A stretch of 64,000 bases of DNA from positions 11,532,001-11,596,000 of the forward strand of contig JBHGNT010000003.1 in assembly GCA_043228905.1 (NCBI GenBank), given 5' to 3'. How positions within the stretch are numbered: position 1 is the first letter of the stretch; each line of letters starts with the position of its first letter. A program made the translations under genes and the position numbers. Below, in pieces: positions 4,583 to 63,999 of the stretch. This DNA is from Azolla caroliniana (taxonomy: Eukaryota; Plantae; Polypodiophyta). The notes under the pieces are model-generated. The model saw nothing but the letters and a program-made list of their open reading frames with translations. It had not been told where the DNA came from and did not search any database.

Positions 4583-5026
4583 TGTCATGAACACATGACC
4601 ATTATGGCGTCACCCGGACTTGAACCTCGAACCTTGTAATCCATACTTGAAAACCTCAACCATTAAGATAGCTTATTGTTATATGAAACAATAAAAGCTA
4701 CTTCTTATATTACATTGATTATTGTAAAAACTCTAGATTATTCTAGAATGTTCTAGAATGTCCTAGAGCATTCTAGGTCTAGAACATTCTAGAACATTCT
4801 AGAAATCTCTAAGCTATTCTATAGGAACCTATAAATAAGGGCATACATGTATTCTCAAATCAATTCGAACCAACACCAGTCTTTAGCTCTCATTATATAT
4901 CTTGTATCCATTCTCTTTCTTTCTCTATCTTATACATCCATTCTTCTCTTAGTATTTCGTTCCTTTCTTCTCGTGTTCTCTAATATCCTTCTTCCATCAC
5001 TCTATCTTTTATCCTTGGTTCTGACA
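4583..5026 (+). repeat. 5' LTR of A
   Basis: Direct repeat of 9863-10303 with about 6 transitions counted by eye. TATAAATA at 4830. Confidence 0.95.
4741..4804 (+). promoter_or_regulatory. Heat-shock-element (nGAAn inverted repeat) cluster in the LTR U3 region
   Basis: TTCtaGAAtgTTCtaGAA (4741-4758) and GAAcaTTCtaGAAcaTTCtaGAA (4782-4804), about 25 nt upstream of the TATA box. Confidence 0.7.
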
Positions 5027-9867: not shown

Positions 9868-10303
9868 ACACATGACCATTATGACGTCACCTGGACTTGA
9901 ACCTCGAACCTTGTAATCCATACTTGAAAACCTCAACCATTAAGATAGCTTATTGTTATATGAAACAATAAAAGCTACTTCTTGTATTACATTGATTATT
10001 GTAAAAACTCTAGATTATTCTAGAATGTTCTAGAATGTCCTAGAGCATTCTAGGTCTAGAACATTCTAGAACATTCTAGAAATCTCTAAGCTATTTTATA
10101 GGAACCTATAAATAAGGGCATACATGTATTCTCAAATCAATTCAAATCAACACCAGTCTTTAGCTCTCATTATATATCTTGTATCCATTCTCTTTCTTTC
10201 TCTATCTTATACATCCATTCTTCTCTTAGTATTTCGTTCCTTTCTTCTCGTGTTCTCTAATATCCTTCTTCCATCACTCTATCTTTTATCCTTGGTTCTG
10301 ACA
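9863..10303 (+). repeat. 3' LTR of A; first 3 nt and PPT missing
   Basis: Matches the 5' LTR from position 4586 onward. Confidence 0.93.
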
Positions 10304-13891: not shown

Positions 13892-14326
13892 TGTTACCCG
13901 GACATGTATGGATGCATCGAAGTCAGAAACATGTTCGGAGTCGGAGTCGGATCGACAGTTCGGATCAATGACTCAGCAGATAGCCGAATAGGACATAGTT
14001 AGTTACGAAGTTTCGTAATTCTTGATAATTATAGGAGGTAGGATTTCTTGATGAGAAAAGACCTTCGGGTTACCTATAAAAGGAACCAAAGGCATTGTAA
14101 AAATCTATCATTGTATTTAGTAATATAAAGTTTGGTTAGGAAATCTCTGTGTACGGATTGCTTCTTGCCATCTATTTCTTTCTGTTTAAACTATATTACA
14201 TAAGTCACGATCTCGGTGTCTATTATCACCGATAAGTTTACAGATAATTCGTATCTATTCGTCTATTCGTACCGAACGTTCGTCTTATACTATGTCGACA
14301 AAGTAGTAATTGTCGACCGAACAACA
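13892..14326 (+). repeat. 5' LTR of B
   Basis: TGTTACCCGG...AACAACA, a direct repeat of 26861-27305 with several substitutions and small indels. TATAAAA near 14075. Confidence 0.93.
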
Positions 14327-14337
14327 CAGTATAATTT

Positions 14338-14348
14338 TGGCACGCCCA
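14338..14348 (+). promoter_or_regulatory. Short PBS of B (tRNA-Arg-like)
   Basis: TGGCACGCCCA, 11 nt downstream of the LTR end. It resembles the TGGCACGCCCAGTGGGAC-type PBS (recalled). Confidence 0.6.
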
Positions 14349-14616: not shown

Positions 14617-17600
14617 GTGCATCCCCAATATCTGTCTTGACAGGCCCAAGTCTGTCATTGAGAAAGTTCGGTTGAGAGCCTTCTTCAGCATCCGTATTTT
14701 AGCTTGGTCCCATCCGACGATCAACATGTCGTCCACGTACAGAAGGAGTATCAAGAAGTCGCCTCCATCGAACTTCTTCACAAACACGCAGTGATCGGTT
14801 TGCGTTTTGTGATACCCTTGGTTGGTCATGAAGGAGTCGAACTTCCGGTACCCTTGTCAGGGAGCCTGCTTCAGTTCGTACAAGCTCTTCTTCAACCGGC
14901 AAACCAGGTGCTCCTTCCCTTTCTCCACGAATCCTTCTGGTTGTTGCATGTAGATCTCCTCTTCGAGGTCACCGTGAAGGAATGTCGTCTTCATGTCCAA
15001 CTGCTCTACCTTGAGGTCCATGCTTGCCGCTATACTTAACATCGTCCGGATGGAAGTCATGTTTACTACCGGGGAAAATATCTCGTCGAAGTCCACGCCC
15101 TTCTTCTGCTAGAACCTCTTCACCACGATCCTGGCTTTGTATCTCGGGGGGTTGCCGGCATCTCCCGGTTTCAACTTGTACACCCACTTGTTTCGGAGTG
15201 CCCGCTTTCCTTTCCGCAACTCCACCAATTCATATGTATGGTTCTCATGCAAGGAATCCATCTCATCCTGCATGGCACTTAACCATTTGCGGCGATGGGC
15301 GTCACTTTTAGCTTCCTCGAAGCTTTCATGCTCCCCCTCGTCGGTTAGCAACACATGCTCTGGATCCAGAAATCTTCGGGGGGGGTCTTCTCTCTCTGAG
15401 AGGATATCTGTGTCCTTGGGCTTCAGTAACCGGCTCCTCCATTTGCTCTTCATCTGAATCCGATTCGGGGTCTTGTCCGGTTTTGGTTTCACCTATTCCT
15501 TCTTCTTCGGCCGGTTTTGTCTCCTCACCGTCACCGGCTGGTTCATTGAGTGCTATCCGGCTTCTTGCCGGTTGGAACTGCATTTCATCAAATCGAAATT
15601 TTTCCTTACCGGTCAACTCGGAGTTCATTATCTTCTTCTCCGACTCCCAGTCGGCAAGCGTCTTGTCCTCCATGAAGATAATATCTCGACTCCGGAATAC
15701 TTTCTGGTCGATCGGGTTCCACACTCGGTAGCCGAACTCATCGTCGTCGTAACCGAGGAATATGCATGGCCGGGTCTTCGGATCTAACTTTCCTCTCTGG
15801 TCCTTAGCTACATGCACATACGCAAGACACCCAAATACCTTCAGATTCCGGTAGGACAGTTCCTTACTGGTCCAGACTCTCTGCGGCGTGTCTCCATCCA
15901 AGGGTACTGAGGGTGATCTGTTTATCACATATGTCGTCGTTGACAGTGCCTCAACCCAAAACGTCTTGGGTAAATTTGCATGCGCCAGCATACTCCGAAC
16001 CCTCTCCATTATGGTCCGGTTCATCCTCACGGCTAGCCCGTTTAGTTCTGGCGTCTTTGGCACGGTAAATTCAAGCTGGATTCCCTTCGAGCGACAGTAC
16101 TCCTCGAACTGCCCCCGGTATTCTCGTTCGAACCACCTTCAACTTCCGGCTGGTTTGTCTTTCCACTCTCGCATGGAGCTCTTTGAAGACTGATAGCACC
16201 TGATCCTTCGTCTTCAACGGTGTGGCCCACAGCTTCTGGCTGTGGTCATCTATGAACGTCACGAAGTACTATGATCCGGCATGTGACTTCGTGTCCACTT
16301 GACACACATCAGTATGCACCAACTCCAGTGGTGCATTACGTCTCATCGGTGGCCTCGATCGGAAGGAGGTCCAGTTTTGTTTACCGGCCAGACAATCAGT
16401 GCACTTCTCCACAAGTGCATGTTCTTCACTGGAATGAGGTTGTCGTTTGCAAGCCTCTTAATCCCCTTCTCGCTCATGTGACACAACCTGTTATGCCACA
16501 ACTCACTGGTAGTGTCGGATGCCACGTTAACTTCCTCCGGACATAACCGGGCATTCATCAGGTACAGAGTGTTGAATTTCCGAGCCCGAGCCACAATCAA
16601 GCTCCCTTTGTTGAACTTCATAACACCATTCTGGATGCTACCCGTGTAGCCTTCATCATCTAGCCGACCAGCTGATATTAGGTTCAATCGAACCTCCGGA
16701 ACATGTCGAACATCCTTCAGCAGCATCTTGCATCCAGTTGATGTCGTCAACCACACATCTCCTATGCCAACAATTCAGCATGTACCTTCATTCCCCATAC
16801 GAACACGGCCGTGGTCACCAACTGAGAAGGATGAGAAGCATTTTCTATCTGGGGTCAGGTGGAACGACACTCTGGAATCGACCACTAGGTCATCTCGTCT
16901 CCGGCAAGGTTCAGCTCACTCTCCTCGGTGATAAGCATTAGCTCCTCTTCGTTTGCCGCGATTGCCGTCGTTCCTTTCCGGACCTGCCCTCGTCGATCCG
17001 AACCGTTTTGGTCCGATGACTTCTTCGAATCGGTACTGTTGATTTCCTTGTCTTTCCGGAAATGCCGACAAATCTTCTGGAAGTGCCCCGGCTTCCCGCA
17101 GTAGAAGCAAGTAGGCCTCCCTCTTGAGTTTGACCGTGTCCCCGATTTTTCTCAGTTCTGGGGACTCCAATTCCTTTGTCTTCCACGTTCCGATTCGGAA
17201 AGGAGCGCTTTTGAGTCGGGGATTGGTTCCTTGTCCTTCCGACGCGCCTCCTCGTTCAGGATGCTTGTCTTCACCGTCTGCAAAGACAAGTTCTCTTCTT
17301 AGCAGGAGGTGCTGAGAGTAACCACCAAGTTCTCCCAGCTTTCCGACAACATACACATCAGCATGATTGCCTGCATTGCATCATCCAAGGGGAACTTGAT
17401 CACTGCAAGTTGATTTACATACCTCATGAAGGTGCTTACATGTTCAACCATGCTCTCGCCGTCTCTGTATTTCAGGTTTACTATTTTCCTCATCAATGAT
17501 GTTCTGTTGAGCGCATTCTTCCTCTCATAAAGACCCGACAACTTCTGCCACATCTCGTGGGAATTTGTGTCATTCGCCACGTGCTGAAGGACACTTACGT

Positions 17601-18288
17601 CGACACACTGTCGGATAGTGGCCACAACTTTCCTATTCAGAAGCTTCCAATCCGACTCCAATACCCCCTTTGGTATTTCCGATCTGTCGATTGGCTCGTA
17701 CAGGTCTTTTACAATGAGAAGGTCTTCCATCTTAATCTTCCAGTCTCCATAGTTCTGTGAATTTAGAACCATCATACCTGGGAAGCCGCTCCCGCCTCCT
17801 TCCATTTTCTGTGTTGCTCGCTCTGATACCAGTTTGTAGTTCGAATCTAATGGAAGGGGAAAACAGAATACAGAAGCTGAGAATGACACAGATTTTAACG
17901 TGGAAACCCAAACTGGGAAAAAAACCATGTGGAGTCCACAAACTCCGAAACAAAAGACTATGAGAGAAAGGAATAGAATCAAAGATCTCAGAGGCAACGA
18001 CCTCAAGATTTTGCTTCGCCAACAGGCGGCTATGGAGCTCACACGCTTCCACTCACACTCGTTCACTCTCACGGTTACAGAGGCAACAACCTCGTCAACA
18101 GTAACTTTACAATAACGCACATTTCTAACATAATTGCCCTAAGTAACCTTTCGACTATTTAGAAGTTTAGCTCACGAGGGCATATTCAGCCTATTTACAA
18201 ACTTAGCCTTCCGTGTTGGCTATCTCCACGAGTTGCTCATCAACACGATTCTTCTCACTTCCCATCCGGAGGGACCTGTTTCCTAACA
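14617..18288 (-). mobile_element. 3'-truncated Ty1/copia element C nested in B, same family as E
   Basis: LTR at 17835-18288, PBS TGGTATCAGAGC at 17820-17831, gag MEGGGSG.., integrase, and RT LLLYVDDML. It breaks off inside RT. Confidence 0.92.
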
Positions 18289-18333
18289 AGGGATTTCCTG
18301 ACAACATGAGAGATTAACCATGGAGCTCAGATA

Positions 18334-23664: not shown

Positions 23665-26600
23665 ATGCCGATTGTCATATCTGATAACCTGCGCCGCTGG
23701 CTCGTTCGCAATAAATTACAAGGATTCTTGAAAGTCACAAAAACAGAGCTGCACCCGAATGCGGAAGCTTTGATGGCAGAAATCAATGTCTCGACGATCA
23801 CTAATAAGAAGGTAGGAGCCATGTTGGAGATGCCAAGAGGCGGGTTCGTCGTTGTCAACAAGGTCACAAAGGATGGTCTGCGGTCCTATTTCAGTGAATA
23901 TTCGCCCTCTGCCAAAGCGTATCAGACACAAGGAGGTAGGGACGTGTTTTTCCATGAAGTTGCAAAAATTTTACTGGAAGTAGGGTTTGTCAGTCCGAGA
24001 TTCTACTATATGCCCAAAAAGAGGTCCGAATTTATTATCGTCACTTATGAAGGTGAAGCTTTCGATTGGGGGCTACTGTCCGCAGATGCTTTGAGAGAGC
24101 AATTGAACGGAGTTCAGACGGGCAAACCAATGAAGCTGATTTTTGCTCGGTGGTTATCGATATTATTTCCGACTTCAAAGCCAGAAAACCGATCAGAGGT
24201 GCGTCGACCGCCTCAGGTACAGTCATCCCGAACCCGATGACAAGTCCAACGGGAAGAGTGGAGGGAAGAAGAATCAACGCAGGACGATACCACTCAGACC
24301 GAATTTGACCAACCGAACCCAAGGCAACAACAAGAATCAGAACAACAACAGTCGACGCAGTCTCAACAGTCGACACCGCAACCCGAACCTGCCCAGCAAC
24401 CGCTGACTCAACAACCAAAGTTTCAACCACAGAGGATGCAACAACGCGGGACGATAGATGAGCAACCCTCACAACAACAGGAATCGAGACAAGTCAACAT
24501 TGACCAGCAACCGCCGAAGCAACGCACGATTAAACAACGGTCCCAAAGATATTCTAGACCGGAGCAAGAACAACATGCGCAGAAGAAACAGAGAACTAAT
24601 GATCAAGCTGCCCAAAGCACACAAGTACCTTGTGTCAATCCAAATGACATGTCATGAGTTCAAAAAGGGCAGGCATCAACAACAACGGTGCAAGAGGCAC
24701 TCGGTTTTTCCGACATCCCGGCAGCAGCACATGAGCTAGCTGCCATTGTGCAGTTCGGAACATCATATGAACTAGTAGAATGGTTAGCTAAAAGACTTCA
24801 AGAAGTGTTGGAAAGAAAGAGCACCGAGATCAAATAATGATCCAAAAGTCATTATGTGGAGCTATCGAACCCAACGAGCAAGCGGAAGTGGATAGAATTG
24901 GTTGACAACGAAATGCTAAAATTAGAGGTGAAGCCATTCAAATACCACCGTTACATGAGGCACTGGTGGAAGTCCACCGGGAATATGAAAAGGCTAGCAG
25001 AGCAGCCAGGGATATGGCTGAATTATATAAACAGGCTATAGTAGCTGCAGATGTGCTTAATGCACAGTATAAACAGACGCAGGTAGAAAATCAGCAGTTG
25101 AAGAATAAACTGCAAGAAGAACAAGTGGCTCTAGAAAAAGTGAGAGAACAGATAATACAACTAGAGTCACAAAGAAAACCTTTGGAGACGGATTTGGAAT
25201 TACAAAAGAGGTTGGACTAAGCCGAAAAAGCACGAAGAGAAGCAGAAATTAGGGTAGAAAAGACCGAAGACAGGTCCAGAGAAATGGACGCTCGATTACA
25301 GTCGGCAAAAACGGCGGCCGACAGATGTTTGGGGGAAAAAGATAATGTGATACAAGAATTACGCTGACAGTTAGCCCAATAGCAAGAGGCTACAAGGCAA
25401 CAAGTTGAGGAACTGGAAGAGTATGTCAAGAGCCAAGAGACTTGTTTTACCACACAATTGGCTGGTAAAGACAAACTCATAGACGAAATCAACGAAAAAA
25501 TGATTCAGCAGCAGAACAACTGGAATGAGGAAAAAGTGAAGCTGGAAAACCGATGTGCAGAAGTTCAAATGGTCTCCGAGAAAAAACGACTTGACTTGTT
25601 AGCGGCACAAGCTAAACTGATGCAGGCAGTGTTAGGAAACAGGTCCCTCCGGATGAGGAGTACCCAGCTACGGAAGACCCGGTGAGAACCGGATGAGGAG
25701 TACCCGGCAAGATCCGGATGGTGAAGGCCCGGTGAGAAGTGCTCACCGGATGAAGGGACATATTCGTAAATATGTTTCCTAAGAGGCCATCGGGGCTATA
25801 TTTGTAAATAGCCGAAAAGTCATATTAGTATAAATAGCGAGTAGTTGTCATTCTTCTTGGTGCAAGATTAGAGCGCGTAACTATGTATAGAGAGAGTGAG
25901 AGAGAGAGAAAGAGACAAAGAATTTGTATCTCTGTTGTAACCGCCGCCTGTGGCGAAGATAGCAAGCTCGAGGTCGTTGCATCGGTGCTTTACTATTGTA
26001 TATTGTTACATAGTGATAGTTAGCAATCAGTGGACTACCGTGGTTTTTCCCGTGTTTGGGTTTTCCACGTAAACATCCTGTGTACGCTTCTCTCCATTGT
26101 GTCGTGCATTCATTCCCCGTTTTTTCTATGTTTTTTTATTCTAAGCTCGGTTGTGGCTGAGCGTTGTTCATCGGGAGCATGTAGTTCCTGTCAGGCAGAA
26201 GGACATACGAATGCGGTAATCATTGATTTGCGGAATACATTGGCAACATCACAGTTTGAGGCTAGAATGACTCAGGACAGGGTTCAAGCGATCATTACAT
26301 GTCACCGACTTAACACCTTAAAATTGGTCAATGAATCGTTGGAGAAGGGTTGGCAAACATGGTCGGCGCAAGCCGCGGAGCTTTAGCTATTAAGAGCCGA
26401 CAGAGAAAATAGGAAAGTTCAGGGCAAAGGCTTCCTCAAGAGGTCGGAGGAAGCAATGACCACAGTTCAGTGGTAAGGACCTATACAACATGGTGGAGAA
26501 GAAATTAACCGAGTCATGCAGGAATTCGACAAGCATGATGTCAAGACATCCATCACGTTAGACAATATTGAAGCCGAAAGAGTAACCAAAACACCTGGAC

Positions 26601-26809: not shown

Positions 26810-26841
26810 AGGGTTCCCCTGGGTTTGCCGGACAACGTCTT

Positions 26842-26858
26842 GGCCCACGGGCGTGCCA
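26842..26858 (+). other. Sense tRNA-3'-end-like motif at the PPT position of B
   Basis: GGCCCACGGGCGTGCCA, then AG, then the 3' LTR. There is no adjacent purine tract. Confidence 0.75.
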
Positions 26859-26860
26859 AG

Positions 26861-27305
26861 TGTTACCCGGACAAGTATGGATGCGTCGGAGTCGGAGTCG
26901 GAGTCGGATCGACAGTTCGGATCGATGACTCAGCAGATAGCCGAATAGGACATAGTTAGTCATGAAGCTTTGTATTTCTTGATAATTATAGGCAGTAGGA
27001 TTTCTTGATGAGAAAAGACCCTCGGGTTACCTATAAAAGGAACCAAAGGCATTGTAAAAATCTATCGTTGTATTTAGTAATATAAATTTTTGTTAGGAAA
27101 TCTCTGTGTACGGATTGCTTCTTGCCATCTATTTCTTTCTGTTTAAACTATATTACATAAGTCACGATCTCGGTTTCTATTATCACCGATAAGTTTACAA
27201 ATAATTCGTATCTATTCGTCTAACCACAACTTCTTGATAGAACATTCGGTACGAACGTTCGTCTTATACTGTGTCGACAAAGTAGTAATTGTCAACTGAA
27301 CAACA
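26861..27305 (+). repeat. 3' LTR of B
   Basis: Direct repeat of 13892-14326. Confidence 0.93.
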
Positions 27306-51768: not shown

Positions 51769-52784
51769 ACTTGCATCCCTTGGTCAATGATCTGTCCGAT
51801 CGACACCAGATTCTTGGTGATCTTCGGGACATGCAGGACGTTCATCAGTCACCCCTTCTGTCCGACAAAGCCAAGTTTCGTCACCGACATGCTCGACGGG
51901 GTGAGGGGTATCATCGCCAATTTCGACAACCCCCGGCTGCTCCGGTTTCTCAAGGTATAAGAATCACTCTTCGTGGCTCGTCATGTGATTCGAAGCTCTG
52001 GAATTGACATACCACACCTTATTTGGTTTTGAGGTGCCCGTCTTCATCGAGTTGGCCTTATGCTTCATTACAAAGGTTGGGTCCGTTCCAGCTTGGTTCG
52101 AGCCTTCGGCGTAGTCAAATCGTTGTCGATTTCCCTATTCGGCTCTACAAAATCTGGATTTGTCTAAATCAGCCTTCTTCTTCCCGCACTCTCTTTCTCT
52201 TTGGTCTTTCCGACCACAATACCAGCATTCCGGCGTGGCCTTCACTTGCCGGTTTCTAGCACCGCCTTGACTCCCCCTGCTCGTGGAGGGTCCAGAAATG
52301 GTTTCGGCATATCGATTATGCCTCTGATTCTACTCTTGTTGGTCGCCACTATTGCATACCAATACACCACGTTCTCCATGACCACATGGCCTACCCGCCT
52401 GCATGTACAACATCTGATGGTCAGGTTGCGTGATCCTCAATGCACCTGTGTGGTTTTCTTCAACCATAACCATCGATTGCAGGTCAAAAAACGACGGTGG
52501 TTTCTCCCTCGTGCAAATAGCTGTCTGGATCGGCCCGTACCTTTTAGCTAGACTGCCGAGGCAAATTTGTACCATTTTGTCCTCATCCACTATCACATTG
52601 ATGGACCCCAAGGCATCACAGATTTCCTAGATCTAAGTGGTGTAGTACGTCACCATTATCAAGGAAATCCTCGTGTGTTCGTTAAATGAAGCGGAACCAC
52701 CGTGGTCCTAAACCGGAAGGATTCGATGTTTTTATTAGCGAAGTATTTAAGATAGAGAGAGAGTAAATCCCAATTCCAACTTTG

Positions 52785-53704
52785 TGTTGGGAAAACAGGT
52801 CCCTCCGGATGGGAAGGAAGAAGAACAGTGCCGAAACCGTATGAGGAGTACCCGGCTACGGAGAGCCGGATGGTGCAGACCCGGTATGAACCGGATGAGG
52901 AGCACCCGGCTACGGAGAGCCGGATGGTACAGGCCCGGTATGAACCGGATGAGGAGCACCCGACTACGGAGAGCCGGATGATACAGGCCCGGTGTGAACC
53001 GGATGAGGAGTACCCGGCTACGGAGAGCCGGATGATACAGGCCCGGTATGAACCGGATGAGGAGTACCCGGCTACGGAGAGCCGGATGATACAGGCCCGG
53101 TATGAACCGGATGAGGAGTACCCGGCTACAGAGAGCCGGATGATACAGACCCGGCGAAGACCGGATGAGGAATACCCGGCTACGGCGAGCCGGATGGTAC
53201 AGACCCGGTGAGAACCGGATGAAGAGACATATTCGTAAATATGTTTCTGAGAGCCCATCGAGGCTACATTTCTAAATAGCCAAAAAGTCATATTAGTATA
53301 AATATGACTTAGGGCAAACTTTTAGTACAGCAGGAGTTGTTATTTTTTCTTGTTGGTGCAAGAAGAAGAGAGAGCACGTAATAGTGTACAGAGAGAGAGA
53401 GAGAGAGAGAGAAAGAAAGAGGTCGTTGCCTCTGTTGTAATCGCCGCCTGTGGCGAAGAGCGTGAGTCCGAGGTCGTTGCCTCCAAGAGCTCACTGGTTT
53501 GTACACCCATACATAGTGACAGTTTGCAGCCTGTGGGCTGCCGTGGTTTTTCCCCTAGTTTGGGGTTTTCCACGTAAACCTCCTGTGTAGTGTGTGTGTA
53601 CCATTTCTCTTCTTTGTGTCATGTTCTACTTCCCGTTTTCTGTGTATGAAAAGAATCTCGGTTGTGGCCGAGCGTTGCGCATAAGGAACATTCGGTTCCC
53701 GTCA
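52785..53704 (+). repeat. 5' LTR of D (920 bp)
   Basis: TGTTGGG...CCGTCA, homologous to solo LTR 25630-26193. TATAAATA near 53297. Confidence 0.88.
52834..53222 (+). repeat. Tandem array of about 7 x 54 bp in the U3 region of D
   Basis: Unit GAACCGGATGAGGAGTACCCGGCTACGGAGAGCCGGATGATACAGGCCCGGTAT. Confidence 0.95.
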
Positions 53705-54280
53705 AGTGGTATCAGAGCGAAACGACACAGAAAATGGACGAATCGTTTGGCGGCATGTTCAAGCTCACCGGCTCCAACTATTCAGTGTGGAAGTCGAAGA
53801 TGAGGGACATGCTCGTGGTTAAAGACCTCTGGCTGCCGGTTCAATTCGGGGACAAGAGACTAGACAAAATCGACGCCGCGATATGGGAGGTGATGCACAT
53901 GAAGACAACGGCGTACATACGGTGCTTCATCGACATGAGCCTATACAACAACTTCAATGAAGAGAGCAAGGCTCATGAGCTCTGGGAGAAGATCGGCATA
54001 ATGTTCCAGAACAAAAATGTTGTCAATCAGGTGTCGGTATTCCGGAAGCTAGTAAGACTCCGGTACCAAGATGGCTCCAGCATGGAAGAGCACATGAATG
54101 CCTTCCAGGGGCTGATACACCAGGCAACGTCATTGGAAGTACCTCTTGCCGACGAGGTACTAGCGCTACTCCTGCTCGATTCCCTCCCGGATAGCTGGGA
54201 GACGTTGGTTGTCACTTTGGGCAACGCCGGGCCGAAAGGAAAACGGTTATCCCTAGCAAGAGTAAAGTCGAGCTTGCTAG

Positions 54281-57200
54281 TGTTAGAAATTGACGCTTTC
54301 AAAACCTTCACCTCTAGGCCACAACCGAGGAAACACGAGTCAATGCAGCAGTAAATCGAAAACACAGAGAGAGACTCGAATGCACAGGGTTTAGCGTGGA
54401 AAACCCTAGACGGGAAAAACCACGGGAGTGCAAGACTCCAACGATCACTATACGCAGGGAATGTACAATGGCGAGCTGCAAGGCGACGACCTTGAGCTCG
54501 CTGTCCTCGCCACAGGCGGCGGTATTACACAGAGGCGTCGACCTCTTCCTTTCTCTCTCTCTCTCTCACTCTCTCTCTCGGCTGCTCTCACTTCGCTCCC
54601 TCTAAGTGGAAAACAGAAAAATGAGCAACAACAACAAAATTGTTTGCCCTAAGTCATATTTATACACATATGACTTTCGGGCTATTTACAAATATAGCCT
54701 AGAGGGCCCTTGGCAAACATATTCACAAATATGTCCCCGCATCCGGATCTCTCTCCGGGTACATTCGTCATCCGGCTCCGTAGCCGGGGTCTTCATCATC
54801 CGGATCCGATACCGGGTACTCCTCATTCGGGTCTTCATTCCCGATTCCCGGACATCTGACCATCCCATCCGGAGGGACCGTAATCCCAACAAACTCCCCC
54901 TTCACTTCGGCATGGGATGTCTTTCCAGTCCGACCCTCTTCCGGCATGCTTCCAGCTTGTCGGGTGTGAGCACTTTGGTCAGCATATCTGACCCGTTCTC
55001 GTCCGTGTGGATCTTCGTCAGCACGAACTCCTGGTCTTCTATCCTTTCCCGGATCCAGTGATATCTTCGCTGGATGTGCTTCGTCCGGGAGTGATAGGCC
55101 GCATTCTTCGCAAGGTGGATGGCACTCTGACTGTCGCAGTAGAGTCGGTACTCCTCCTGCCGGATACCGAGCTCTCTAATGAAGTCCTTCATCCATATTA
55201 TTTCCTTGCCGGCTTCAACAGCCGCCATGTACTCCGCCTCCGTGGTTGACAACGCAACCGTCTTCTGCAGCCTCGACTGCCACGAAACAGCTCCCCCTGC
55301 ATACGTCATCACATACCCTGATGTGGACCGGCTAGTATCTGCATCAGCCGATATATCCGAATCGGTAAAGCCGTCGAGTTCAGGCTTACCGGAGCCGAAT
55401 CGGAGGCACACGTTTGTCGTGCCCTTCAGGTATCGGAGTATCCACTTGGCCGCATTCCAGTGCTCTTTGCCGGGATTGCTCATGTACCGGCTCACCACTC
55501 CGACTGCATATCCTATGTCCGGTCTTGTACACACCATTGCGTACATCAAGCTTCCGATGGCAGAGGCATATGGTACTTTCATCATGTCCTCCTTCTCAGC
55601 CTTTGTCTTGGGGCTTTGCTTGCTGGACAACTTGCAGTTTGCCGGGAGGGTTGACCAGACCGGTCTTGCTTCCGACATGTTGAACCGGTGAAGCACCTTT
55701 GTCACGTACTTCTCCTGTGACAGCCACAACTGCTTCTTCTTCCGGTCCCGGATGATGTGCATCCCTAGTATTTGCCTCGCCGGACCCAGGTCCTTCATTG
55801 AGAAGGTTCGGTGAAGCGCTTTCTTCAGCATCTGTATCTTGACCTGGTCCCGTCCGACGATCAACATGTCGTCCACGTACAGGAGGAGTATTAGAAAGTC
55901 TCCTCCTTCGAACTTCTTCACAAACACGCAGTGATCGGACTGCGTTTTGTGGTACCCTTCGTCGGTCATGAAAGAGTCGAACTTCCGGTACCATTGCCGG
56001 GGAGCCTGCTTCAGTCCGTAAAGGCTCTTCTTCAACCGGCATACCAGGCGCTCCTTCCCTTTCTTCTCGAATCCTTCCGGTTGCTGCATGTAGATCCCTT
56101 CTTCGAGGTCACCGTGAAGAAATGTCGTCTTCACGTCCATCTGTTCTACCTCGAGGTCCATGCTTGCCGCTATGCTCAGCACCGTCCGGATGGAGGTCAT
56201 CTTCACTACCGGGGCAAATATCTCGTCGAAGTCGACGCCCTTCTTCTGCTGGAACCCCTTCACCACGATCCTGGCTTTGTATCTCGGGGGCTTTCCGGCA
56301 TCTCCCGGTTTCAGCTTGAACACCCACTTGTTTCGAAGTGCCCGCTTTCCTTTCGGCAACTCCACAAGTTCATATGTGTGGTTCTCATGCAGGGAATCCA
56401 TCTCCTCCTGCATGGCACTTAACCACCTGCGGCTATGGGTGTCAAGCTTTGCTTCTTCAAAACTCTCCGGCTCCCCCTCGTCGGTTAGCAGCACGTGCTC
56501 TGGTTCCGGAAATCTCCGGGGGGCCCTTCTCTCTCTTAGAGGATATCTCCGTTCCGGAGCTTCGGTAACCGGCTCCTCCGTTTCCTCTTCATCCGAATCC
56601 ATTTCGGGATCGGGGCCGGTTCGGGTATCAGTTTCATCTTCCTCGGCCGGTTCTGTTTCTTCACCGTCTTCGGCCGGATCCTCGAGTGCTAACCGGTACC
56701 TTGCCGGTCGGGACTGCTCCTCGTAGAGTTGATCCTCACCGGTCGACTTGGAGCTCTTCATCTTCTTCTCCGACTCCCAGTCGGCGAGTGTCTTGTCCTC
56801 CATGAAGATGATATCACGACTCCGGAATATCTTTTTGTCGACCGGGTCCCATACTCGGTAGCCGAACTCGTCATCGCCGTAACCGAGGAATATGCATGGC
56901 CGGGTCTTTGGATCTAGCTTTCCTCTCCGGTCCTTTGCCACATGCACATATGCGAGACACCCGAACACCTTCAGATGCCGGTAGGATACTTCCCTACCGG
57001 TCCACACTCTCTGCGGCATGTCTCCGTCCAAAGGTACTGAGGGTGATCTGTTTATCACGTATGTCGCCGTCGACATTGGCTCAGCCCAAAACCCCTTGGG
57101 TAATTTCGCATGCGCCAGCATACTCCGGACCCTCTCCATTATGGTCCGGTTCATCCTCTCGGCCAGCCCGTTCAGTTTCGGCGTCTTCGGCACAGTAAAC

Positions 57201-59591
57201 TCGAGCCGGATTCCCTTCGAGCGACAGTACTCCTCGAACTGCCCCCGGTATTCCCCTCCGTTATCCGCTCGTATCGCTTTCAGCTTCTTGCCGGATTCCC
57301 TTTCCACTCTCGCGTGGAGTTCTTTGAAGACGCACAACACTTGGTCCTTTGTCTTCAACGGTGCCGTCCACAGCTTCCGGTTGTGGTCATCAATGAATGT
57401 CACGAAGTACTGGGCTCCGCCATGTGACTTCGTTTCTACTTGACACACGTCAGTGTGCACCAACTCCAATGGTGCGCTACGTCTCGTCGGTGGCCTTGAG
57501 TGGAAGGAGGTTCGGTTCTGCTTACCGGCCAGGCAATCGGTGCACTTCTCCAGGTGCACATGCTTCACTGGAATAAGGTTGTCTTCTGCAAGCCTCTTCA
57601 TCCCCTTCTCACTCATGTGGCACAGTCTCTTGTGCCACAGCTCACCGGCAGTGTCGGCTGCCACGTTCAACTCCTCCGGACACAACCAGGCATTCATAAG
57701 GTACAGTGTGTTGACTTTCCGGGCCCGAGCCACTATCAGGCTCCCCTTGCTGAACTTCATTACGCAGTTCCAGATGCTACTTGTGTAGCCTTCATCGTCT
57801 AGCCTCCCGGCCGAAATCAGGTTCAATCGAACCTCCGGAACGTGTCGGACATCCTTCAGCAACATTTTGCATCCGGTCGAGGTTGTCAACCACACGTCTC
57901 CTATGCCGGCAATCCGGCACGTACCTTCATTTCCCATCCGAACACAGCCATGCTCACCGGCTGTGTAGGATGAGAAGTATCTTCTTTCCGGGGTCAGTTG
58001 GAACGACGCTCCGGAATCGACCACCCAGGTAGTCTCATCGCCGGCAATGTTTAGTTCACCTTCTTCGGTGATGAGCATGATCTCCTCTTCACTTGCCACA
58101 AGTGCCGTCGTTCCTTTCCGGTCCTGCCCTCGCCGATCCGAACCATTCCGGTCCGTGGCTCCCCGGTAAGCACCGTTCCGTTCCGAAGACTTCTTCGAAT
58201 CGGTGTCGTCGGCTCCGTTGTCTTTTCGGTAATGCCGACAATTCTTTCGGAAGTGCCCCGGCTTCCCACAGTGGAAGCATGTGGGCCTTCCTCTTGACTG
58301 CGACCGGGTCCCCGACTTCCGTTGTCTTCCCCGATCCGATTCGGTAAGCAGCATCTTCGGATCGGAGGCCGGTTCTTTATCTCTCCGACGCGCTTCTTCG
58401 TTCAAAATGCTTGTCTTTACCGTTTGTAGGGACAAGTTATCTTCGGTGCAGGAGGTGCTGAGAGTCACCACCAAGTTCTCCCAGCTTTCCGGCAATGTAC
58501 ACATCAGCATGATGGCTTGCATTGCATCCTCCAACGGGAACTTGATCGCCGCAAGCTGGTTCACGAATCCCATGAACGTGCTTACGTGTTCCACCATACT
58601 CTCCCCGTCCCGGTACTTGAGGTTCACTATCTTCCTCATCAGGGAGGTCCGGTTCAACGCATTCTTCCTCTCGTAGAGGCCCGACAGCTTCTGCCACATC
58701 TCATATGCGTTGGTGTCGTTCGCCACATGTTGTAGAACGCTCACGTCGACGTATTGCCGAATGGTTGCAACGGCTTTCCGGTTCAGAAGCCTCCATTCCG
58801 TCTCAAGTACCCCCTTGGGTATTTCCGACCTGTCGATCGGTTCATACAGGTCCCGAACAATGAGCAGATCCTCCATCTTTATCTTCCAGTCGGCGTAGTT
58901 CTGCGCATTCAGCACCATCATCCCCGGCTCCCCGCTGCTGCCGCCTTCCATTTTCTGCACTGCAGTCGCTCTGATACCAGATTTTTAGAAATTGACGCTT
59001 TCAAAACCTTCACCTCTCGGCCACAACCGAGGAAACATGAGTCAATGCAGCAGTAAATCGAAAACACAGAGAGAGACTCGAATGCACAGGGTTTAGCGTG
59101 GAAAACCCTAGACGGGAAAAACCACGGGAGTGCAAGACTCCAACGATCACTATACGCAGGGAATGTACAATGGCGAGCTGCAAGGTGACGACCTTGAGCT
59201 CGCTGTCCTCGCCACAGGCGGCGGTATTACACAGAGGCGTCGACCTCTTCCTTTCTCTCTCTCTCTCACTCTCTCTCTCGGCTGCTCTCACTTCGCTCCC
59301 TCTAAGTGGAAAACAGAAAAATGAGCAACAACAACAAAACTGTTTGCCCTAAGTCATATTTATACACATATGACTTTCGGGCTATTTACAAATATAGCCT
59401 AGAGGGCCCTTGGCAAACATATTCACAAATATGTCCCCGCATCCGGATCTCTCTCCGGGTACATTCGTCATCCGGCTCCGTAGCCGGGGTCTTCATCATC
59501 CGGTTCCGATACCGGGTACTCCTCATTTGGGTCTTCATTCCCGATTCCCGGACATCTGACCATCCCATCCGGAGGGACCGTAATCCCAACA
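54281..59591 (-). mobile_element. Intact Ty1/copia element E
   Basis: LTRs at 54281-54891 and 58983-59591 (about 7 substitutions and one CT-repeat indel by eye), TSD GCTAG, PBS at 58968-58979 and PPT at about 54892-54906. Confidence 0.97.
54902..58960 (-). CDS. gag-pol: Copia Gag-Pol polyprotein of E (1352 aa; first ATG near 58951)
   Basis: CFHCGKPGHFRKNC, WVVDSGAS, HTDVC..DNGGEY integrase, LLLYVDDML RT and STTEAEY..CDSQSA RNase H. The frame is uninterrupted. Confidence 0.97.
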   Translation of the reverse strand: MQKMEGGSSGEPGMMVLNAQNYADWKIKMEDLLIVRDLYEPIDRSEIPKGVLETEWRLLNRKAVATIRQYVDVSVLQHVANDTNAYEMWQKLSGLYERKNALNRTSLMRKIVNLKYRDGESMVEHVSTFMGFVNQLAAIKFPLEDAMQAIMLMCTLPESWENLVVTLSTSCTEDNLSLQTVKTSILNEEARRRDKEPASDPKMLLTESDRGRQRKSGTRSQSRGRPTCFHCGKPGHFRKNCRHYRKDNGADDTDSKKSSERNGAYRGATDRNGSDRRGQDRKGTTALVASEEEIMLITEEGELNIAGDETTWVVDSGASFQLTPERRYFSSYTAGEHGCVRMGNEGTCRIAGIGDVWLTTSTGCKMLLKDVRHVPEVRLNLISAGRLDDEGYTSSIWNCVMKFSKGSLIVARARKVNTLYLMNAWLCPEELNVAADTAGELWHKRLCHMSEKGMKRLAEDNLIPVKHVHLEKCTDCLAGKQNRTSFHSRPPTRRSAPLELVHTDVCQVETKSHGGAQYFVTFIDDHNRKLWTAPLKTKDQVLCVFKELHARVERESGKKLKAIRADNGGEYRGQFEEYCRSKGIRLEFTVPKTPKLNGLAERMNRTIMERVRSMLAHAKLPKGFWAEPMSTATYVINRSPSVPLDGDMPQRVWTGREVSYRHLKVFGCLAYVHVAKDRRGKLDPKTRPCIFLGYGDDEFGYRVWDPVDKKIFRSRDIIFMEDKTLADWESEKKMKSSKSTGEDQLYEEQSRPARYRLALEDPAEDGEETEPAEEDETDTRTGPDPEMDSDEEETEEPVTEAPERRYPLRERRAPRRFPEPEHVLLTDEGEPESFEEAKLDTHSRRWLSAMQEEMDSLHENHTYELVELPKGKRALRNKWVFKLKPGDAGKPPRYKARIVVKGFQQKKGVDFDEIFAPVVKMTSIRTVLSIAASMDLEVEQMDVKTTFLHGDLEEGIYMQQPEGFEKKGKERLVCRLKKSLYGLKQAPRQWYRKFDSFMTDEGYHKTQSDHCVFVKKFEGGDFLILLLYVDDMLIVGRDQVKIQMLKKALHRTFSMKDLGPARQILGMHIIRDRKKKQLWLSQEKYVTKVLHRFNMSEARPVWSTLPANCKLSSKQSPKTKAEKEDMMKVPYASAIGSLMYAMVCTRPDIGYAVGVVSRYMSNPGKEHWNAAKWILRYLKGTTNVCLRFGSGKPELDGFTDSDISADADTSRSTSGYVMTYAGGAVSWQSRLQKTVALSTTEAEYMAAVEAGKEIIWMKDFIRELGIRQEEYRLYCDSQSAIHLAKNAAYHSRTKHIQRRYHWIRERIEDQEFVLTKIHTDENGSDMLTKVLTPDKLEACRKRVGLERHPMPK

Positions 59592-60704
59592 GCTAGATGA
59601 GGAGGCGCGTCGGAAGGATAAAGATACGAGCTCCGACTCCAAAGTGCTCCTTACCGAATCAGAACGCAGAAGACATAGAAACCGTAGTCCTCAGAACCGG
59701 GAGAAGTCGGGGACACGGTCAAAGTCAAGGGGGAGGCCTACTTGCTTCTATTGCGGCAAGCCGGGACACTTCCAAAAGAACTGTCGGCATTTCCGTAAAG
59801 ACAAGGAAACCGACGGTACCGATTCAAAGCAAACCCCGAGCCGGAACGGTACAGACCGGAACGGTAAAGAACAGAGGGGGCCGGACCGGAAGGGAACGAC
59901 GGCAATCGCGGCAAGTGAAGAGGAGTTGATGTTCATCACCGAGGAGAGTGAGATAAACCTTGCCGGCGACGAGATGACCTGGGTGGTAGACTCCGGAGCG
60001 TCGTTCCACCTTACCCCGGACCAGAAATGCTTCTCATCCTATTCAGCCGGTGATCACGGCTGTGTCCAGATGGGGAATGAAGGAACATGCCGAATTGTCG
60101 GCATAGGAGACGTGTGGCTGACAACACCAACCGGATGCAAGTTGTTGCTGAAGGATGTCCGACACGTTCCGGAAGTTCGTCTGAACCTGATATCAGCCAG
60201 TCAGCTAGATGATGAAGGCTACACGGGTAGCATCCGGAACGGTGTCATGATGTTCAGCAAAGGGAGCTTGATTGTGGCTCGGGCCCGGAAGGTAAACACG
60301 TTGTACCTGATGAATGCCCGGTTATGTCCGGAAGAAGTGAACGTGGCATCCGACACTGCCGGTGAGCTGTGGCACAAGAGGTTGTGTCATATGAGCGAGA
60401 AGGGGATGAAGAGGCTTGCAGACGACAACCTCATTCCAGTGAAGAACGTGCACTGGGAGAAGTGCACTGATTGTTTGGCCGGTAAGCAGAACCGGACCTC
60501 CTTTCGATCAAGGCCACCGATGAGACGTAATGCACCACTGGAGTTGGTGCATACGGATGAGTGTCAAGTAGACTCGAAGTCACATGCTGGAGCGCAGTAC
60601 TTCGTGACGTTCATAGATGACCACAGCCGGAAGCTGTGGGCCACACCGCTGAAGACGAAGGATCAGGTGTTATCCGTCTTCAAAGAGCTCCACGCGAGAG
60701 TGGA

Positions 60705-61124
60705 TGTTATTCTCTTAGCCGGACAAGGCCTAACACAAGGTGTCACGGAGACACTTCACCAAAGGGTGATTACGGCATAGGATTAAGATTCAACGATTAC
60801 ACCGACTTACGTAGGTTACACGATTAGATTGCTTTGGTTAATTACACGCGTAAGATATAACAGTGATTACAGAACGGAAATCAAGACAGAAGTATAAACA
60901 ACATAAGCTCTACTAATTATCCGCTGTCATTACAATAGGGTCCGGGCCTTTAAATAGGTTTCCGGCCCGTAGTACAAAACGGTGCCTCTCGCACCTATTC
61001 GGGATCCGTCCGGATCTGGAACGGCATACCGTTTCCAGTCCGTCCGTCCACACTTTGCTCATTTACAACCATATCTAATTAATTCCTTCACTCCGTATTT
61101 TGGACTCCTTGCCGGCCGGTAACA
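60705..61124 (-). repeat. 3' LTR of G
   Basis: 5-bp inverted ends and a sharp junction with the D coding sequence. Minus-strand CCTATTTAAAGG resembles CCTATAAAAGG in B. The partner LTR is outside the window. Confidence 0.8.
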
Positions 61125-61126
61125 CA

Positions 61127-61143
61127 TGGCACGCCCGTGGGAC
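61127..61143 (-). other. Sense tRNA-3'-end-like motif at the PPT position of G
   Basis: The coding strand reads GTCCCACGGGCGTGCCA-TG-LTR, 16/17 identical to the motif in B. Confidence 0.78.
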
Positions 61144-61176
61144 AGTACCTTGTACGTCGAACCCTTCTCGGCCCCT

Positions 61177-62292
61177 TCATTGTTCACCCAAATTGTTCAA
61201 AATAGTTTGTTCAAGAATTTCCACTTGTTCTTCCGGTTGTGGTTGTTGCGGCTGTGCTTGCTGCTGCTGCTGTGGTTGCGGTTGGGACTGAGGCTGCTCC
61301 GGCTGCTCTGCTTGCTGCTGCTGCTCCGTTTGTTTCGCTGACTCCGGCTGCTCCGTTTGTCTCTCTGGCTCCGGCATCTCCGTTTGACTGCTTCTGGTCC
61401 GGTCTCCTTCCAGTAACGGTTCCTCATCACTGAGGTTGACCGTAACTGGTTCTCGTTCTTTCTCTCCCCGGATCCGGGACCTCTCGTAGCTTTCAAACTG
61501 GATCTGCGCCTCCAGCCTGTCGTCGTCCAGCTGAGCTACAAGTTGCCGGACTTGCTCTAATTGGTCTTCTGCCAAGGCTTGAAAGTCTTCGGCAAGCTCA
61601 TCCCTTATGCCGGTGAAGTCTTCGGAAGTCAGCATATAGCAATCATCTCCCTCCTTCCGCCGGTTCTCTACGTCAGCCCGGAGCAATTGGAGTTCCGCCG
61701 CGTTCGTGGCCCACTTGGTCCACCATTTGACGGACCCGTTGTCAATCAAGCTCTTGGTCTGGTTCAACCAGGCCCGCATTATATCCTGGATGCGACTTGC
61801 TCCCATTTGTGCTCTGCTTTCCACCACTTGTCGCTCCTCCTTCAACTGCTTGATGAGATTTGCCGTATCCTCCGCCTGCTCCCTGTAGCGCGTCAGCTGC
61901 CCTTGATATGTCGTTTGCAGCCTCTGCAGTACCTCCGCCGCTCTTTCTTTTTCCGCCTGCTGTTGCCTGAGGAGCTCTGTCCGAACCTTCTCCGCCTCTT
62001 CCAACCGTCTTCTGTTTTCCGCTTGTTCCTTGGCGAATGCGGTTGCGGTCCGATCAACTGCTTGCCGGAGCTCATCCGTCCGTTCCTTGTGCTCCGTTTG
62101 CAACCGTTTCCACTGTCTTGGTGCTTCTGTGCTTCTTGGCTCGCGAAATGAAAAGGTCTCCATGCGTTCTGCTTCTTCTTTGTGCGTTTTGGCGCCTTTT
62201 TCGAGCATGCACACGTCGTGTACCAATTTAGTATTAAGTAGCGTGGCGTCTCTTAAATGCCCACTACGTACCTTTTCGCGCCTTGCTTTCAC
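61177..62292 (-). CDS. Extra ORF3 of G, a predicted coiled-coil protein with a Q/P/E-rich tail (371 aa; start uncertain)
   Basis: Open frame between pol and the 3' LTR, E/R/Q/A-rich, and homologous to ORF3 of B. Confidence 0.75.
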   Translation of the reverse strand: MKARREKVRSGHLRDATLLNTKLVHDVCMLEKGAKTHKEEAERMETFSFREPRSTEAPRQWKRLQTEHKERTDELRQAVDRTATAFAKEQAENRRRLEEAEKVRTELLRQQQAEKERAAEVLQRLQTTYQGQLTRYREQAEDTANLIKQLKEERQVVESRAQMGASRIQDIMRAWLNQTKSLIDNGSVKWWTKWATNAAELQLLRADVENRRKEGDDCYMLTSEDFTGIRDELAEDFQALAEDQLEQVRQLVAQLDDDRLEAQIQFESYERSRIRGEKEREPVTVNLSDEEPLLEGDRTRSSQTEMPEPERQTEQPESAKQTEQQQQAEQPEQPQSQPQPQQQQQAQPQQPQPEEQVEILEQTILNNLGEQ

Positions 62293-62315
62293 ACCCGTTC
62301 ATACCTCGATTTTTA

Positions 62316-62319
<4 letters not shown>

Positions 62320-62361
<42 letters not shown>

Positions 62362-62365
62362 TTTT
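62320..62365. repeat. Poly(T) tract (poly(A) on the coding strand of G)
   Basis: T33-AAA-T10 between the pol stop and ORF3. Confidence 0.9.
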
Positions 62366-62382
62366 AATGACGGTGTGTGACC

Positions 62383-63999
62383 TTACACATCCGTAGGTCC
62401 CTTCGGACCCTGACCGTTTTCCTTACGGGTTGCCGTGTCTTCCTTCGTCTCTACTACGGGTTCCCCGTCGTCTTTTTCTTCCGGATCGATCCGTACCGAT
62501 CCCGGACAGGTTCCTGGTATAGTGCCGGTGAGCTGCATAAACGGGTTCTTTGGCATCGGTCCTTTATAGGGCTTTAGTCGAAATCCATTCACCCACTTGC
62601 CTAGTACTTCCCCGGCAAGTGTCCCTATCTGATAGGACCCGTTGTATTCCCGTGTCAGCCAATACGGGCCTGTCCATCTGAACCGGAGTTTACCCGGCAT
62701 CTTGCCCATCCTCGTTTGGAATACTAGCACCGGCTTTCCGATTTCGAACATCTTCTCATTACCTTTCCGGTGACGGTCAACGAACGCTTTCCGTCGTCGT
62801 TGCTCCAGTTCCATGTGTAGGATGCTGGCCAGCCGTTGCTCCTCCAGTTCGCATAGTGCTGCTAGCCGCATTTCCTCCGACTTCTTTTCATTCAGCCGTT
62901 CCCGTAGTTGGATCCGTAAGCTTGGTACCTGAAACTCGACCGGCATGACCGCTTCTAAGCCGAATGCTAGCCGGAACGGCGTTGTCCGGATACTTGTTTT
63001 GTATGCCGTTCGGTACGCCCATAGCGCACTATGGAGCTTTGTGTCCCAGTCCGTCCGGTTTTCATTGACAATTTTGCGGAGAATGTTCTGCAGCGTTTTG
63101 TTGGTGGACTCTGCTAACCCGTTCGCCTGTGGGTAGTACGGTGTGCTTCTTTTATGGACCACGGCATAGAACGTTGTTAAGCTTTCCACTACCTGGCCGA
63201 GGAAGTGGCCTCCTTGGTCGCTGATTAATTCAATCGGACATCCATATCGGCACCAAATGTTTTCGTACAGGAATTTTGCTGTGGATGACGCGGTGTTGTC
63301 TCTCAGGGCCTTTGCTTCCACCCATTTAGTGCAATAATCCGTTGCCACGATGACATAACGATTACCCGTTCTCATTGCCGGTGGCTTGAACGGTCCGACA
63401 AAATCCAACCCCCACTTCTGGAATGGCTCTAGTGGAAGTACCGGTTGGTGTGGCATCCGTGCTTGCTCCGTAGGCTGGCCCATTCGTTGGCATAGGTCAC
63501 ATTCCTTAGCATACTTGACGGCGTCTTTTAACGTCGTGGGCCACCATAAGCCGCTCTGCCATACTTTCCTCGCCGTCGCTTCCCCGGCATAGTGTCCTCC
63601 GGCAACCCCACAGTGTGCTTCCCGTAAGATTACTTCTTTCTCGTCACTACGGACTGCCCGTCGCCATATTCCATCTGCTCCTTTGTGGTAGAGAGTGTCC
63701 CGTAACAGACAGAAATTGCGGCTCTGCACCGCTAGTCGTTTCCTCTCGTCCCGGTTCATTTCTTCCGGTGGTAGGCCCGTGCTTAGGAACTGGTGCATAT
63801 TTGTCAGCCATTTATCTTCTGATGCCACCGTGTCTTCCGCTGCCGTTTCCGGGGTGATACGGAATAACTCCGCGTCCGGGAATTCATCCGCTACTCCGTC
63901 GCCTGGTTCTCCGGACTCTAACCGGCTTAGATAGTCTGCTACGGCATGCTGGATACCGGGCCGGTGGAAAATCTCGAATTCGAACTCCTGCAACAGCAA
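62383..63999 (-). CDS. pol: pol of G: end of RNase H plus integrase (5' partial)
   Basis: [47 protein letters not shown] and WTGPY. Uninterrupted, with no chromodomain. Confidence 0.95.
   Translation of the reverse strand: MLLQEFEFEIFHRPGIQHAVADYLSRLESGEPGDGVADEFPDAELFRITPETAAEDTVASEDKWLTNMHQFLSTGLPPEEMNRDERKRLAVQSRNFCLLRDTLYHKGADGIWRRAVRSDEKEVILREAHCGVAGGHYAGEATARKVWQSGLWWPTTLKDAVKYAKECDLCQRMGQPTEQARMPHQPVLPLEPFQKWGLDFVGPFKPPAMRTGNRYVIVATDYCTKWVEAKALRDNTASSTAKFLYENIWCRYGCPIELISDQGGHFLGQVVESLTTFYAVVHKRSTPYYPQANGLAESTNKTLQNILRKIVNENRTDWDTKLHSALWAYRTAYKTSIRTTPFRLAFGLEAVMPVEFQVPSLRIQLRERLNEKKSEEMRLAALCELEEQRLASILHMELEQRRRKAFVDRHRKGNEKMFEIGKPVLVFQTRMGKMPGKLRFRWTGPYWLTREYNGSYQIGTLAGEVLGKWVNGFRLKPYKGPMPKNPFMQLTGTIPGTCPGSVRIDPEEKDDGEPVVETKEDTATRKENGQGPKGPTDV

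Follow-up and report, generated by a model that had tools for sequence, protein, structure and literature searches.

A tRNA-Arg(UCU) 3'-end copy at the polypurine-tract position of a plant Ty3/gypsy lineage, a candidate start site for the plus strand

What starts the plus strand of an LTR retrotransposon when the position beside its 3' LTR holds a piece of tRNA and no polypurine tract (PPT)? For LTR retrotransposons and retroviruses alike, plus-strand priming from a PPT is taken to be the general rule (PMC5371799, PMC6317226). The question is raised by an element, G, at the end of a 64,000-nt stretch of Azolla caroliniana DNA (the window), which is filled by LTR retrotransposons nested in one another. 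A first-pass annotation had described the junction at G as an LTR end plus a primer binding site (PBS) on the + strand, with pol, ORF3 and the TATA-like motif of the LTR all facing the other way and a T-loop-like GGGTTCGA 13 nt upstream of the motif on the coding strand, and each of these descriptions was confirmed (Table 1). On the + strand, the LTR end at 61124 is followed by 2 nt, TGGCACGCCCGTGGGAC (61127-61143), 13 nt and the complement of GGGTTCGA. Read along the coding strand, the order is the ORF3 stop, GGGTTCGA, 13 nt, GTCCCACGGGCGTGCCA, 2 nt and the TG of the LTR.

G is a minus-strand Ty3/gypsy non-chromovirus that is cut by the window edge. Its LTR stands directly after GTGGA inside a + strand copia frame (element H), and in other copies this copia runs on past 60704 (44-90 contigs per run in four public runs). 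A young age for G is plausible from its place inside a copia with open visible frames, and a single LTR gives no date. The open reading frames of G had been called intact, which is not supported: ORF3 is open, but alignment to two relatives (L063 and L017, the ORF3 of relatives having 1,050-1,170 codons) reveals that ~1.9 kb is absent in frame, and of pol only 1.6 kb is visible. Pfam scans of ORF3 returned no family, a search with its N-terminal part found 10 unnamed homologues, and Atlas clusters gave leads, scoring under 0.9, to Transposase_32 and ATHILA. The nearest named relatives of the G integrase occur in Adiantum, Riccia and Cryptomeria (~37-57% identity), and closer relatives are metagenome proteins. 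Between pol and ORF3 lies a long T-run (poly-A on the coding strand; 62318-62366), shorter in element B at the same place.

Several neighbours have features of their own. The LTR of copia H holds an array of ~7-9 copies of a 54-nt unit (52781-53280), and element A has a 64-nt palindrome in both of its LTRs (4741-4804 and 10018-10081), and neither a tRNA PBS nor a PPT is clearly seen in the parts of its inner junctions that were inspected. Element B contains a solo copia-like LTR within ORF3 (25649-26193) and, in its gag region, a further copia in antisense (14617-18290). A tRNA gene search over the window found none, and Rfam over 60600-61500 gave a single sub-threshold match, taken as chance.

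Table 1. Positions of the features of elements G and B and of the copia that G interrupts, in window coordinates.
Feature	Position	Strand	Description
3' LTR of G	60705..61124	-	420 nt, TG...CA
TATA-like word in the LTR of G	60949-60956	- (coding strand)	sole TATA-like match in the LTR
Spacer	61125..61126	-	2 nt between CCA and the TG of the LTR
tRNA-Arg(UCU) 3'-end copy	61127..61143	-	tRNA positions 59-76 without base 66, in coding sense; at the PPT position; reads as a PBS on minus-strand DNA
Insert	61144..61156	-	13 nt; hairpin with 4-bp core and 3-nt loop; 2 bp more via 61142-61143/61156-61157
tRNA T-arm copy, GGGTTCGA	61157..61164	-	tRNA positions 51-58
ORF3 of G	61177..62298	-	extra ORF, open; ~1.9 kb gone in frame near residues 61-72
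RNase H tail and integrase of G pol	62383..63999	-	open up to the window edge; 1.6 kb of pol visible
5' LTR of B	13892..14326	+	5-bp target-site duplication (TSD) TTACA; LTRs 400/423 identical
Sense PBS of B	14338..14347	+	10 nt, 11 nt after the 5' LTR
tRNA-like block and 2-nt spacer of B	26816..26860	+	adjoins the 3' LTR, 26861-27305
Host copia H	59592..60704	+	PBS at 53707; G splits it at this point, copia F (54283-59591) further upstream
GTGGA	60700..60704	+	expected TSD of G; partner beyond the window

The PPT is missing before the 3' LTR in G, in B and in a third element, L123, described below. The 18 nt that precede the LTR contain 8, 10 and 9 purines, respectively, and no G-run, while the same 18 nt contain 13 purines in the chromovirus E and 14 in the copia F, both with a G-run. 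The tRNA-like block that occupies this position was compared with a reference, a whole tRNA-Arg(TCT) with its CCA at L003 1190-1265. In G, the block corresponds to tRNA positions 51-58 and 59-76, with base 66 missing and the insert placed after position 58. The L003 tRNA is a mature, whole tRNA in PBS orientation, joined to the ORF3 tail of a deleted element, and it is likely that a primer was copied by read-through there before a wrong jump.

Within the window, the 15-mer core of the block occurs exactly twice, at G and at the 3' LTR of B; allowing up to three mismatches gives four matches where 0.61 are expected, a count reached by 0 of 100 shuffles. Contigs of four runs include many that share only 61121-61164 with G and have unlike flanks. 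A pattern scan of metagenome contigs retrieved at least 121 loci, most of them from one assembly series, so that few hosts are sampled. Because the 15-nt core is imposed by the search pattern in L002-L122, its invariance there is circular. The T-arm part lies outside the pattern and was recognised, by at least 7 of 10 matches to tRNA 49-58, in 113 of the 123 blocks, G and B among them, whose upstream sequence was long enough, and at 15-16 nt before the core in 110 of the 113, among the matches listed. At least four of the 10 blocks that lack it are chance bacterial matches. Covariance-model scores are also obtained by L001, L048, L073 and L075, which are chance matches to the pattern, so such scores on pattern-selected loci are no evidence; over 86 kb, the L123 junction (E 0.046) was the sole match of the covariance model besides G and B. 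In viral contigs, the pattern scan gave one chance locus and the G integrase gave no match; alignment gave two distant elements there, L125 and L126, and L126 carries a normal PPT.

The insert appears to fold. Among the matches listed, a hairpin of at least 4 pairs is present in 91 of 113 blocks and in 45 of 65 distinct sequences, compared with a shuffle mean of 5.7 and maximum of 14. All six inner hairpin pairs covary with both sides changing in the 79 distinct blocks among the matches listed (86 cells, a count reached by none of 500 shuffles, with no more than 17 in slid controls), and this covariation is strong but not convertible to a probability, the structure having been drawn from the same, related sequences. 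Positions matching tRNA 58-60 covary with one another and not with the tRNA, which indicates that pairing past base 61 is not required. Folding of the block alone was no better than shuffles (z -1.0 to +1.2 in 16 folds), and neither folding energies nor wobble counts (15 G.T versus 14 A.C on the coding strand) picked a folding strand. Judged by these comparisons, the block is lineage-wide, conserved and structured. In L023, L026, L074, L099 and L109, CCA and LTR may be separated by 4 nt rather than 2, and L045 (750-1826) is a fold-back derivative with two inverted right ends and the block on both arms (72-89% complementary pieces).

B and G had been treated as independent instances of the trait. 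G, B and L006 fall in one clade (14 rows, SH-aLRT 95, in a quick tree of the integrase core with nine short rows dropped), so the two copies have the trait in common by descent and not from separate origins. A scan by protein only, without the block pattern, found two loci, L123 and L124. The second (30% identity) was dropped as distant, with no TG...CA LTR pair at the repeat inspected. L123 is a complete element (59% identity to P0003) in which both LTRs are present (1.6 kb, 93% alike) and the TSD is unclean. After its 5' LTR is an 18-nt sense PBS of another type, and before its 3' LTR are GGGTT, an 8-bp hairpin of different sequence, the tRNA-like end and 2 nt. This tRNA-like end matches the L003 tRNA at 13 of 15 positions and has base 66, and its two differences are CpG-type transitions, read as decay; GGGTT is kept without a full internal T-stem. 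As L123 lies outside the G/B clade (quick tree of the integrase core, 39-row subset), the trait spans two branches. L123 (7895-15226) has a 2,444-codon frame that extends ~1,000 codons past the integrase, the extra ORF being apparently fused to pol, and this plant-type element is on a contig filed in a bacterial genome bin. G had been proposed as the best test case, a place that structurally belongs to B or L123, each with both LTRs present.

At the 5' end, a sense PBS directly follows the LTR in 16 of 53 motif sites with at least 330 nt downstream, two of these 16 being degenerate (among the matches listed). In L028, L040 and L067, the LTR is followed by gag in the sense orientation. It should be noted that short-read contigs can collapse or join two LTRs, which makes the 5' junctions, G-like ones included, evidence at the level of the family. 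The first-pass annotation had asked whether the inner junction of the other LTR of G would hold a PBS or a PPT; for the family the answer is a 5' junction with a sense PBS, and that of G itself is seen only at this family level. At the LTR end of G, run X3 has a mixed loose end (four contigs, agreement 0.61) that by hand count agrees with the G-like 5' junction in 21 of the first 24 letters with one gap. B does not fit self-priming of the Tf1/Tcn1 type, where the PBS would pair with the 5' end of the element's transcript: the 10-mer of its PBS has a complement only in the 3' block and none in the LTR.

The 5' sites were compared with the tRNA and with the 3' block of the same element at 14 junctions: four follow the tRNA for 13 nt and their own block for 11, five match both for 10 nt and five match both for only 4. 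All four loci of the L006 family have a PBS that tracks the tRNA for 13 nt and the block for 11, and this further tracking points to a host tRNA as the minus-strand primer. Four of the five junctions with a 4-nt match are those of L017, L036, L063 and L067, whose LTRs are 74% like that of G. The 5' PBS is thus not complementary to the 3' block in the closest relatives of G, nor in L123, and the block is therefore not simply pairing with its own PBS. Most likely, as far as these junctions can tell, the tRNA used by the family of G at the 5' end differs from the one whose copy is kept at the 3' end. The G-like 5' PBS is probably of the Arg(UCG) type. For an 18-mer with the same first 12 letters, two sources differ, one giving the label R and the other W (PMC4724089).

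Both sites are also kept in seven non-coding derivatives (L010, L020, L022, L030, L058, L071 and L074), in which PBS and block lie 1.8-2.3 kb apart on one contig with a longest ATG frame of 71-154 codons. These derivatives are ~2.3-2.6 kb long with short LTRs, and in L022 the other type of 5' PBS is seen at an additional LTR end. In L063 (2420-3760), a foreign pol and a G-like ORF3 are separated by the nested LTR of an unrelated element that has a normal purine tract; the pol there is part of a different, nested element and was left uncounted for the lineage.

That the block is where the plus strand starts, by a route free of a PPT and by one or other of the two leading mechanisms considered here, is probable from the sequence comparisons. 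For the first of these, in which a host tRNA would anneal to the minus-strand DNA at the block and prime the plus strand 2 bases before the LTR, we estimate a probability of roughly 0.5. On the sense RNA, transcribed from the 5' LTR, a host tRNA would act as primer at the short PBS of the 5' end, and after the first jump reverse transcriptase would copy the 3' block and RNase H would clear the RNA. Nucleocapsid from Gag would then anneal tRNA-Arg(UCU) to the DNA, with positions 76-67 and 65-61 paired, base 66 bulged, the hairpin looped out and the T-arm (51-58) paired. Extension from the CCA would add 2 extra bases and then U3-R-U5, which is the usual geometry for trimming by integrase. The 3' block would be inherited from the RNA and not recopied from the tRNA, so that its deletion and hairpin persist, while the 5' PBS would keep tracking the host tRNA.

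The arrangement CCA, 2 nt, TG is found in G, B and L123, none of which was selected by the search pattern. Three observations favour priming by a host tRNA. The core stays tRNA-like across families with non-aligning LTRs, the LTRs of G and B failing to align although the two elements have the 15-mer in common. The position that corresponds to tRNA 55 (column 11) is only T or C in 79 of 79 blocks, with C in 30 (among the matches listed), a change that a G.U pair with the tRNA tolerates. Finally, the 3' 30-mer of the tRNA folds onto the minus strand of G in three predicted segments around the hairpin (RNA parameters). A tRNA paired to DNA makes an RNA:DNA hybrid, which RNase H could cleave before the primer is extended, and this counts against a host tRNA, as does the need for two tRNA species that would arise in G-like elements and L123. 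These two points, together with the internal covariation of positions 58-60, are the reason for keeping a rival in which the element primes itself.

In this rival, which we hold to be unlikely but the strongest of the alternatives, the element's own RNA primes the plus strand: the block would be a PPT that mimics a tRNA, RNase H would cut after the CCA, and reverse transcriptase would extend. Refolding of the hairpin would leave a 10-bp RNA:DNA duplex on a T-arm-like stem, like a tRNA on a 10-nt PBS. The position and spacer would be the same, loss of base 66 sets the stem flush with the 10-nt end, the six covarying pairs (58-60 included) favour an internal fold, and a second tRNA is unnecessary in G-like elements or L123. 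However, T-stem pairs are broken in 26 and 19 of the 79 sequences, that of G among them, the 3' side being fixed by the pattern, and T-loop identity is loose, with position 58 being C in 18 of 79 blocks (among the matches listed) in addition to the C at 55. An own-RNA primer could also drift freely, yet the 15-mer is shared by G and B, and in L123, which has base 66, 13 of 15 positions agree with the tRNA.

It is improbable that the block is no primer site at all and serves 5'-3' pairing, strand transfer or packaging, with the plus strand starting at some purine-poor tract that went unrecognised. Non-priming sites related to tRNA are known at the 3' end of other elements (PMC1635307), and families with a UCU-type 5' PBS can pair the two sites over 10-11 nt. 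The known sites are, however, complementary to the tRNA on the genomic RNA, while the block is identical to it in sense; pairing extends over only 4 nt in 5 of 14 junctions and fails in L123 too; and the block takes up the place of the PPT, so that no other tract would fit beside the LTR.

Still less probable is that an antisense transcript is packaged, in which case the 3' block would be the first-strand PBS and the short 5' site would start the second strand. The antisense strand does offer textbook PBS geometry (2-nt spacer, 17 nt), and the 5' sites of the G/B clade are short (10-13 nt, 2-11 nt from the LTR). Against this, TATA-like words in the LTR lie on the strand of the block, the coding strand, in 65 of 77 LTRs and on the other strand in 13 (among the matches listed), the 5' PBS follows the tRNA at base 66, and L123 has a full 18-nt sense PBS. 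Recopying from a tRNA should in addition restore base 66, and no such insertion reaches 3% among the contigs on G, a weak argument in the same direction. An ORF3-like match is found within 700 nt upstream on the strand of the block in 47 of the 48 loci that have one (74 of 122 are without, among the matches listed), and this orientation, with that of the TATA-like words, supports the earlier description of an inverted PBS at the inner edge of G's own 3' LTR and rejects a separate + strand element as the owner of the LTR at 60705-61124. Although the other end of G lies beyond the window and a fold-back derivative does occur (L045), a separate element, a one-off inversion accident or a misassembly at G is hardly credible, given the same arrangement in B with its TSD, in L123 with both LTRs and in nearly all ORF3-bearing loci, the sense gag after the LTR at three loci, and short-read contigs of four runs that cover the block, one of them bridging 61122-61212.

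If priming by a host tRNA is correct, a high-copy lineage shows a second way to start the plus strand and to set the left end of the LTR, which bears on what lets reverse transcriptase extend an RNA primer on DNA rather than cut it. Such elements would be missed by annotation tools in which a PPT is obligatory, or flipped by those that take the orientation from the PBS. The wider picture, an old multi-family plant lineage that lacks a PPT and has both strands primed by host tRNAs, with two different tRNAs in the family of G and in L123, the first acting on the RNA genome and the second docking by its acceptor end and T arm at a hairpin of the minus-strand DNA, stands at about even odds. New here are the mismatch of the 5' and 3' sites in the family of G, the protein-selected L123 and the deletion in ORF3 of G. 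The literature searched, with subscription journals largely outside it, held no description of a tRNA copy replacing the PPT.

The order gag, protease, RT-RH-INT is found in B, P0003 and L123, and G shows the RH tail followed by INT. A chromodomain after the integrase, as found in the neighbouring chromovirus E, is absent from G, P0003 and L123. Pfam scans of P0003, B and L123 found no second RNase H, the PR-RT region of G being outside the window; both P0003 (87% like G) and L123 have the acidic residues of RNase H. Quick trees of the integrase core, in which REXdb references are not included, place G, B and L006 apart from angiosperm matches that are presumably Athila. The lineage is best left as an unplaced non-chromovirus, probably near Athila. 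It lacks a chromodomain like Athila, Tat (TatIII, Ogre and Retand), Phygy and Selgy, has an extra ORF after pol and a 5-bp TSD (in B) as plant non-chromoviruses do, and resembles Ogre, TatIII and some Retand in its Arg-type PBS (PMC6317226). The single RNase H (P0003, L123) and 5-bp TSD (TTACA in B) agree with Athila, but the PBS of Athila is mostly Asp/Asn while that of the lineage is of the Arg(UCU) type by L003; Tat has an additional archaeal-type RNase H that was not found in the lineage; and Phygy and Selgy have a 4-bp TSD and no extra ORF, unlike the 5-bp TSD of B and the extra ORF of ~1,100 codons (PMC6317226).

Up to plus-strand priming, the lineage of G is like ordinary Ty3/gypsy elements. 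In hepadnaviruses, an RNA primer for the plus strand translocates and anneals to the minus-strand DNA by complementarity, the primer being viral RNA and not a tRNA. HIV-1 has a tRNA-like sequence in U3/R near its 3' LTR and keeps its PPT. General background is given in PMC11963269, and the available part of PMC6317226 lists three types of minus-strand primer and no replacement of the PPT. In Tf1, Tcn1 and TAR, the minus strand is self-primed from the 5' end of the transcript (PMC6317226), self-priming being also what the own-RNA alternative invokes; in the lineage of G, however, the minus-strand PBS follows a host tRNA, and the unusual site lies where the plus strand would start. With Ty3 the lineage shares LTRs, gag and the PR-RT-RH-INT order, a tRNA-primed minus strand, a short 5' PBS and involvement of the T-arm in primer binding (PMC5371799). 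There is a likeness in layout to the bipartite or double PBS of Ty3 and Drosophila gypsy, in which the T arm is likewise involved at a second site related to tRNA, close to the 3' end (PMC5371799, PMC1635307), the one in gypsy being dispensable for cDNA synthesis (PMC1635307). On the genomic RNA, those second sites are complementary to the tRNA, and what they bind is the primer of the minus strand (PMC5371799, PMC1635307), whereas the block in the lineage of G is identical to the tRNA in sense, includes the acceptor end with its CCA and abuts the LTR.
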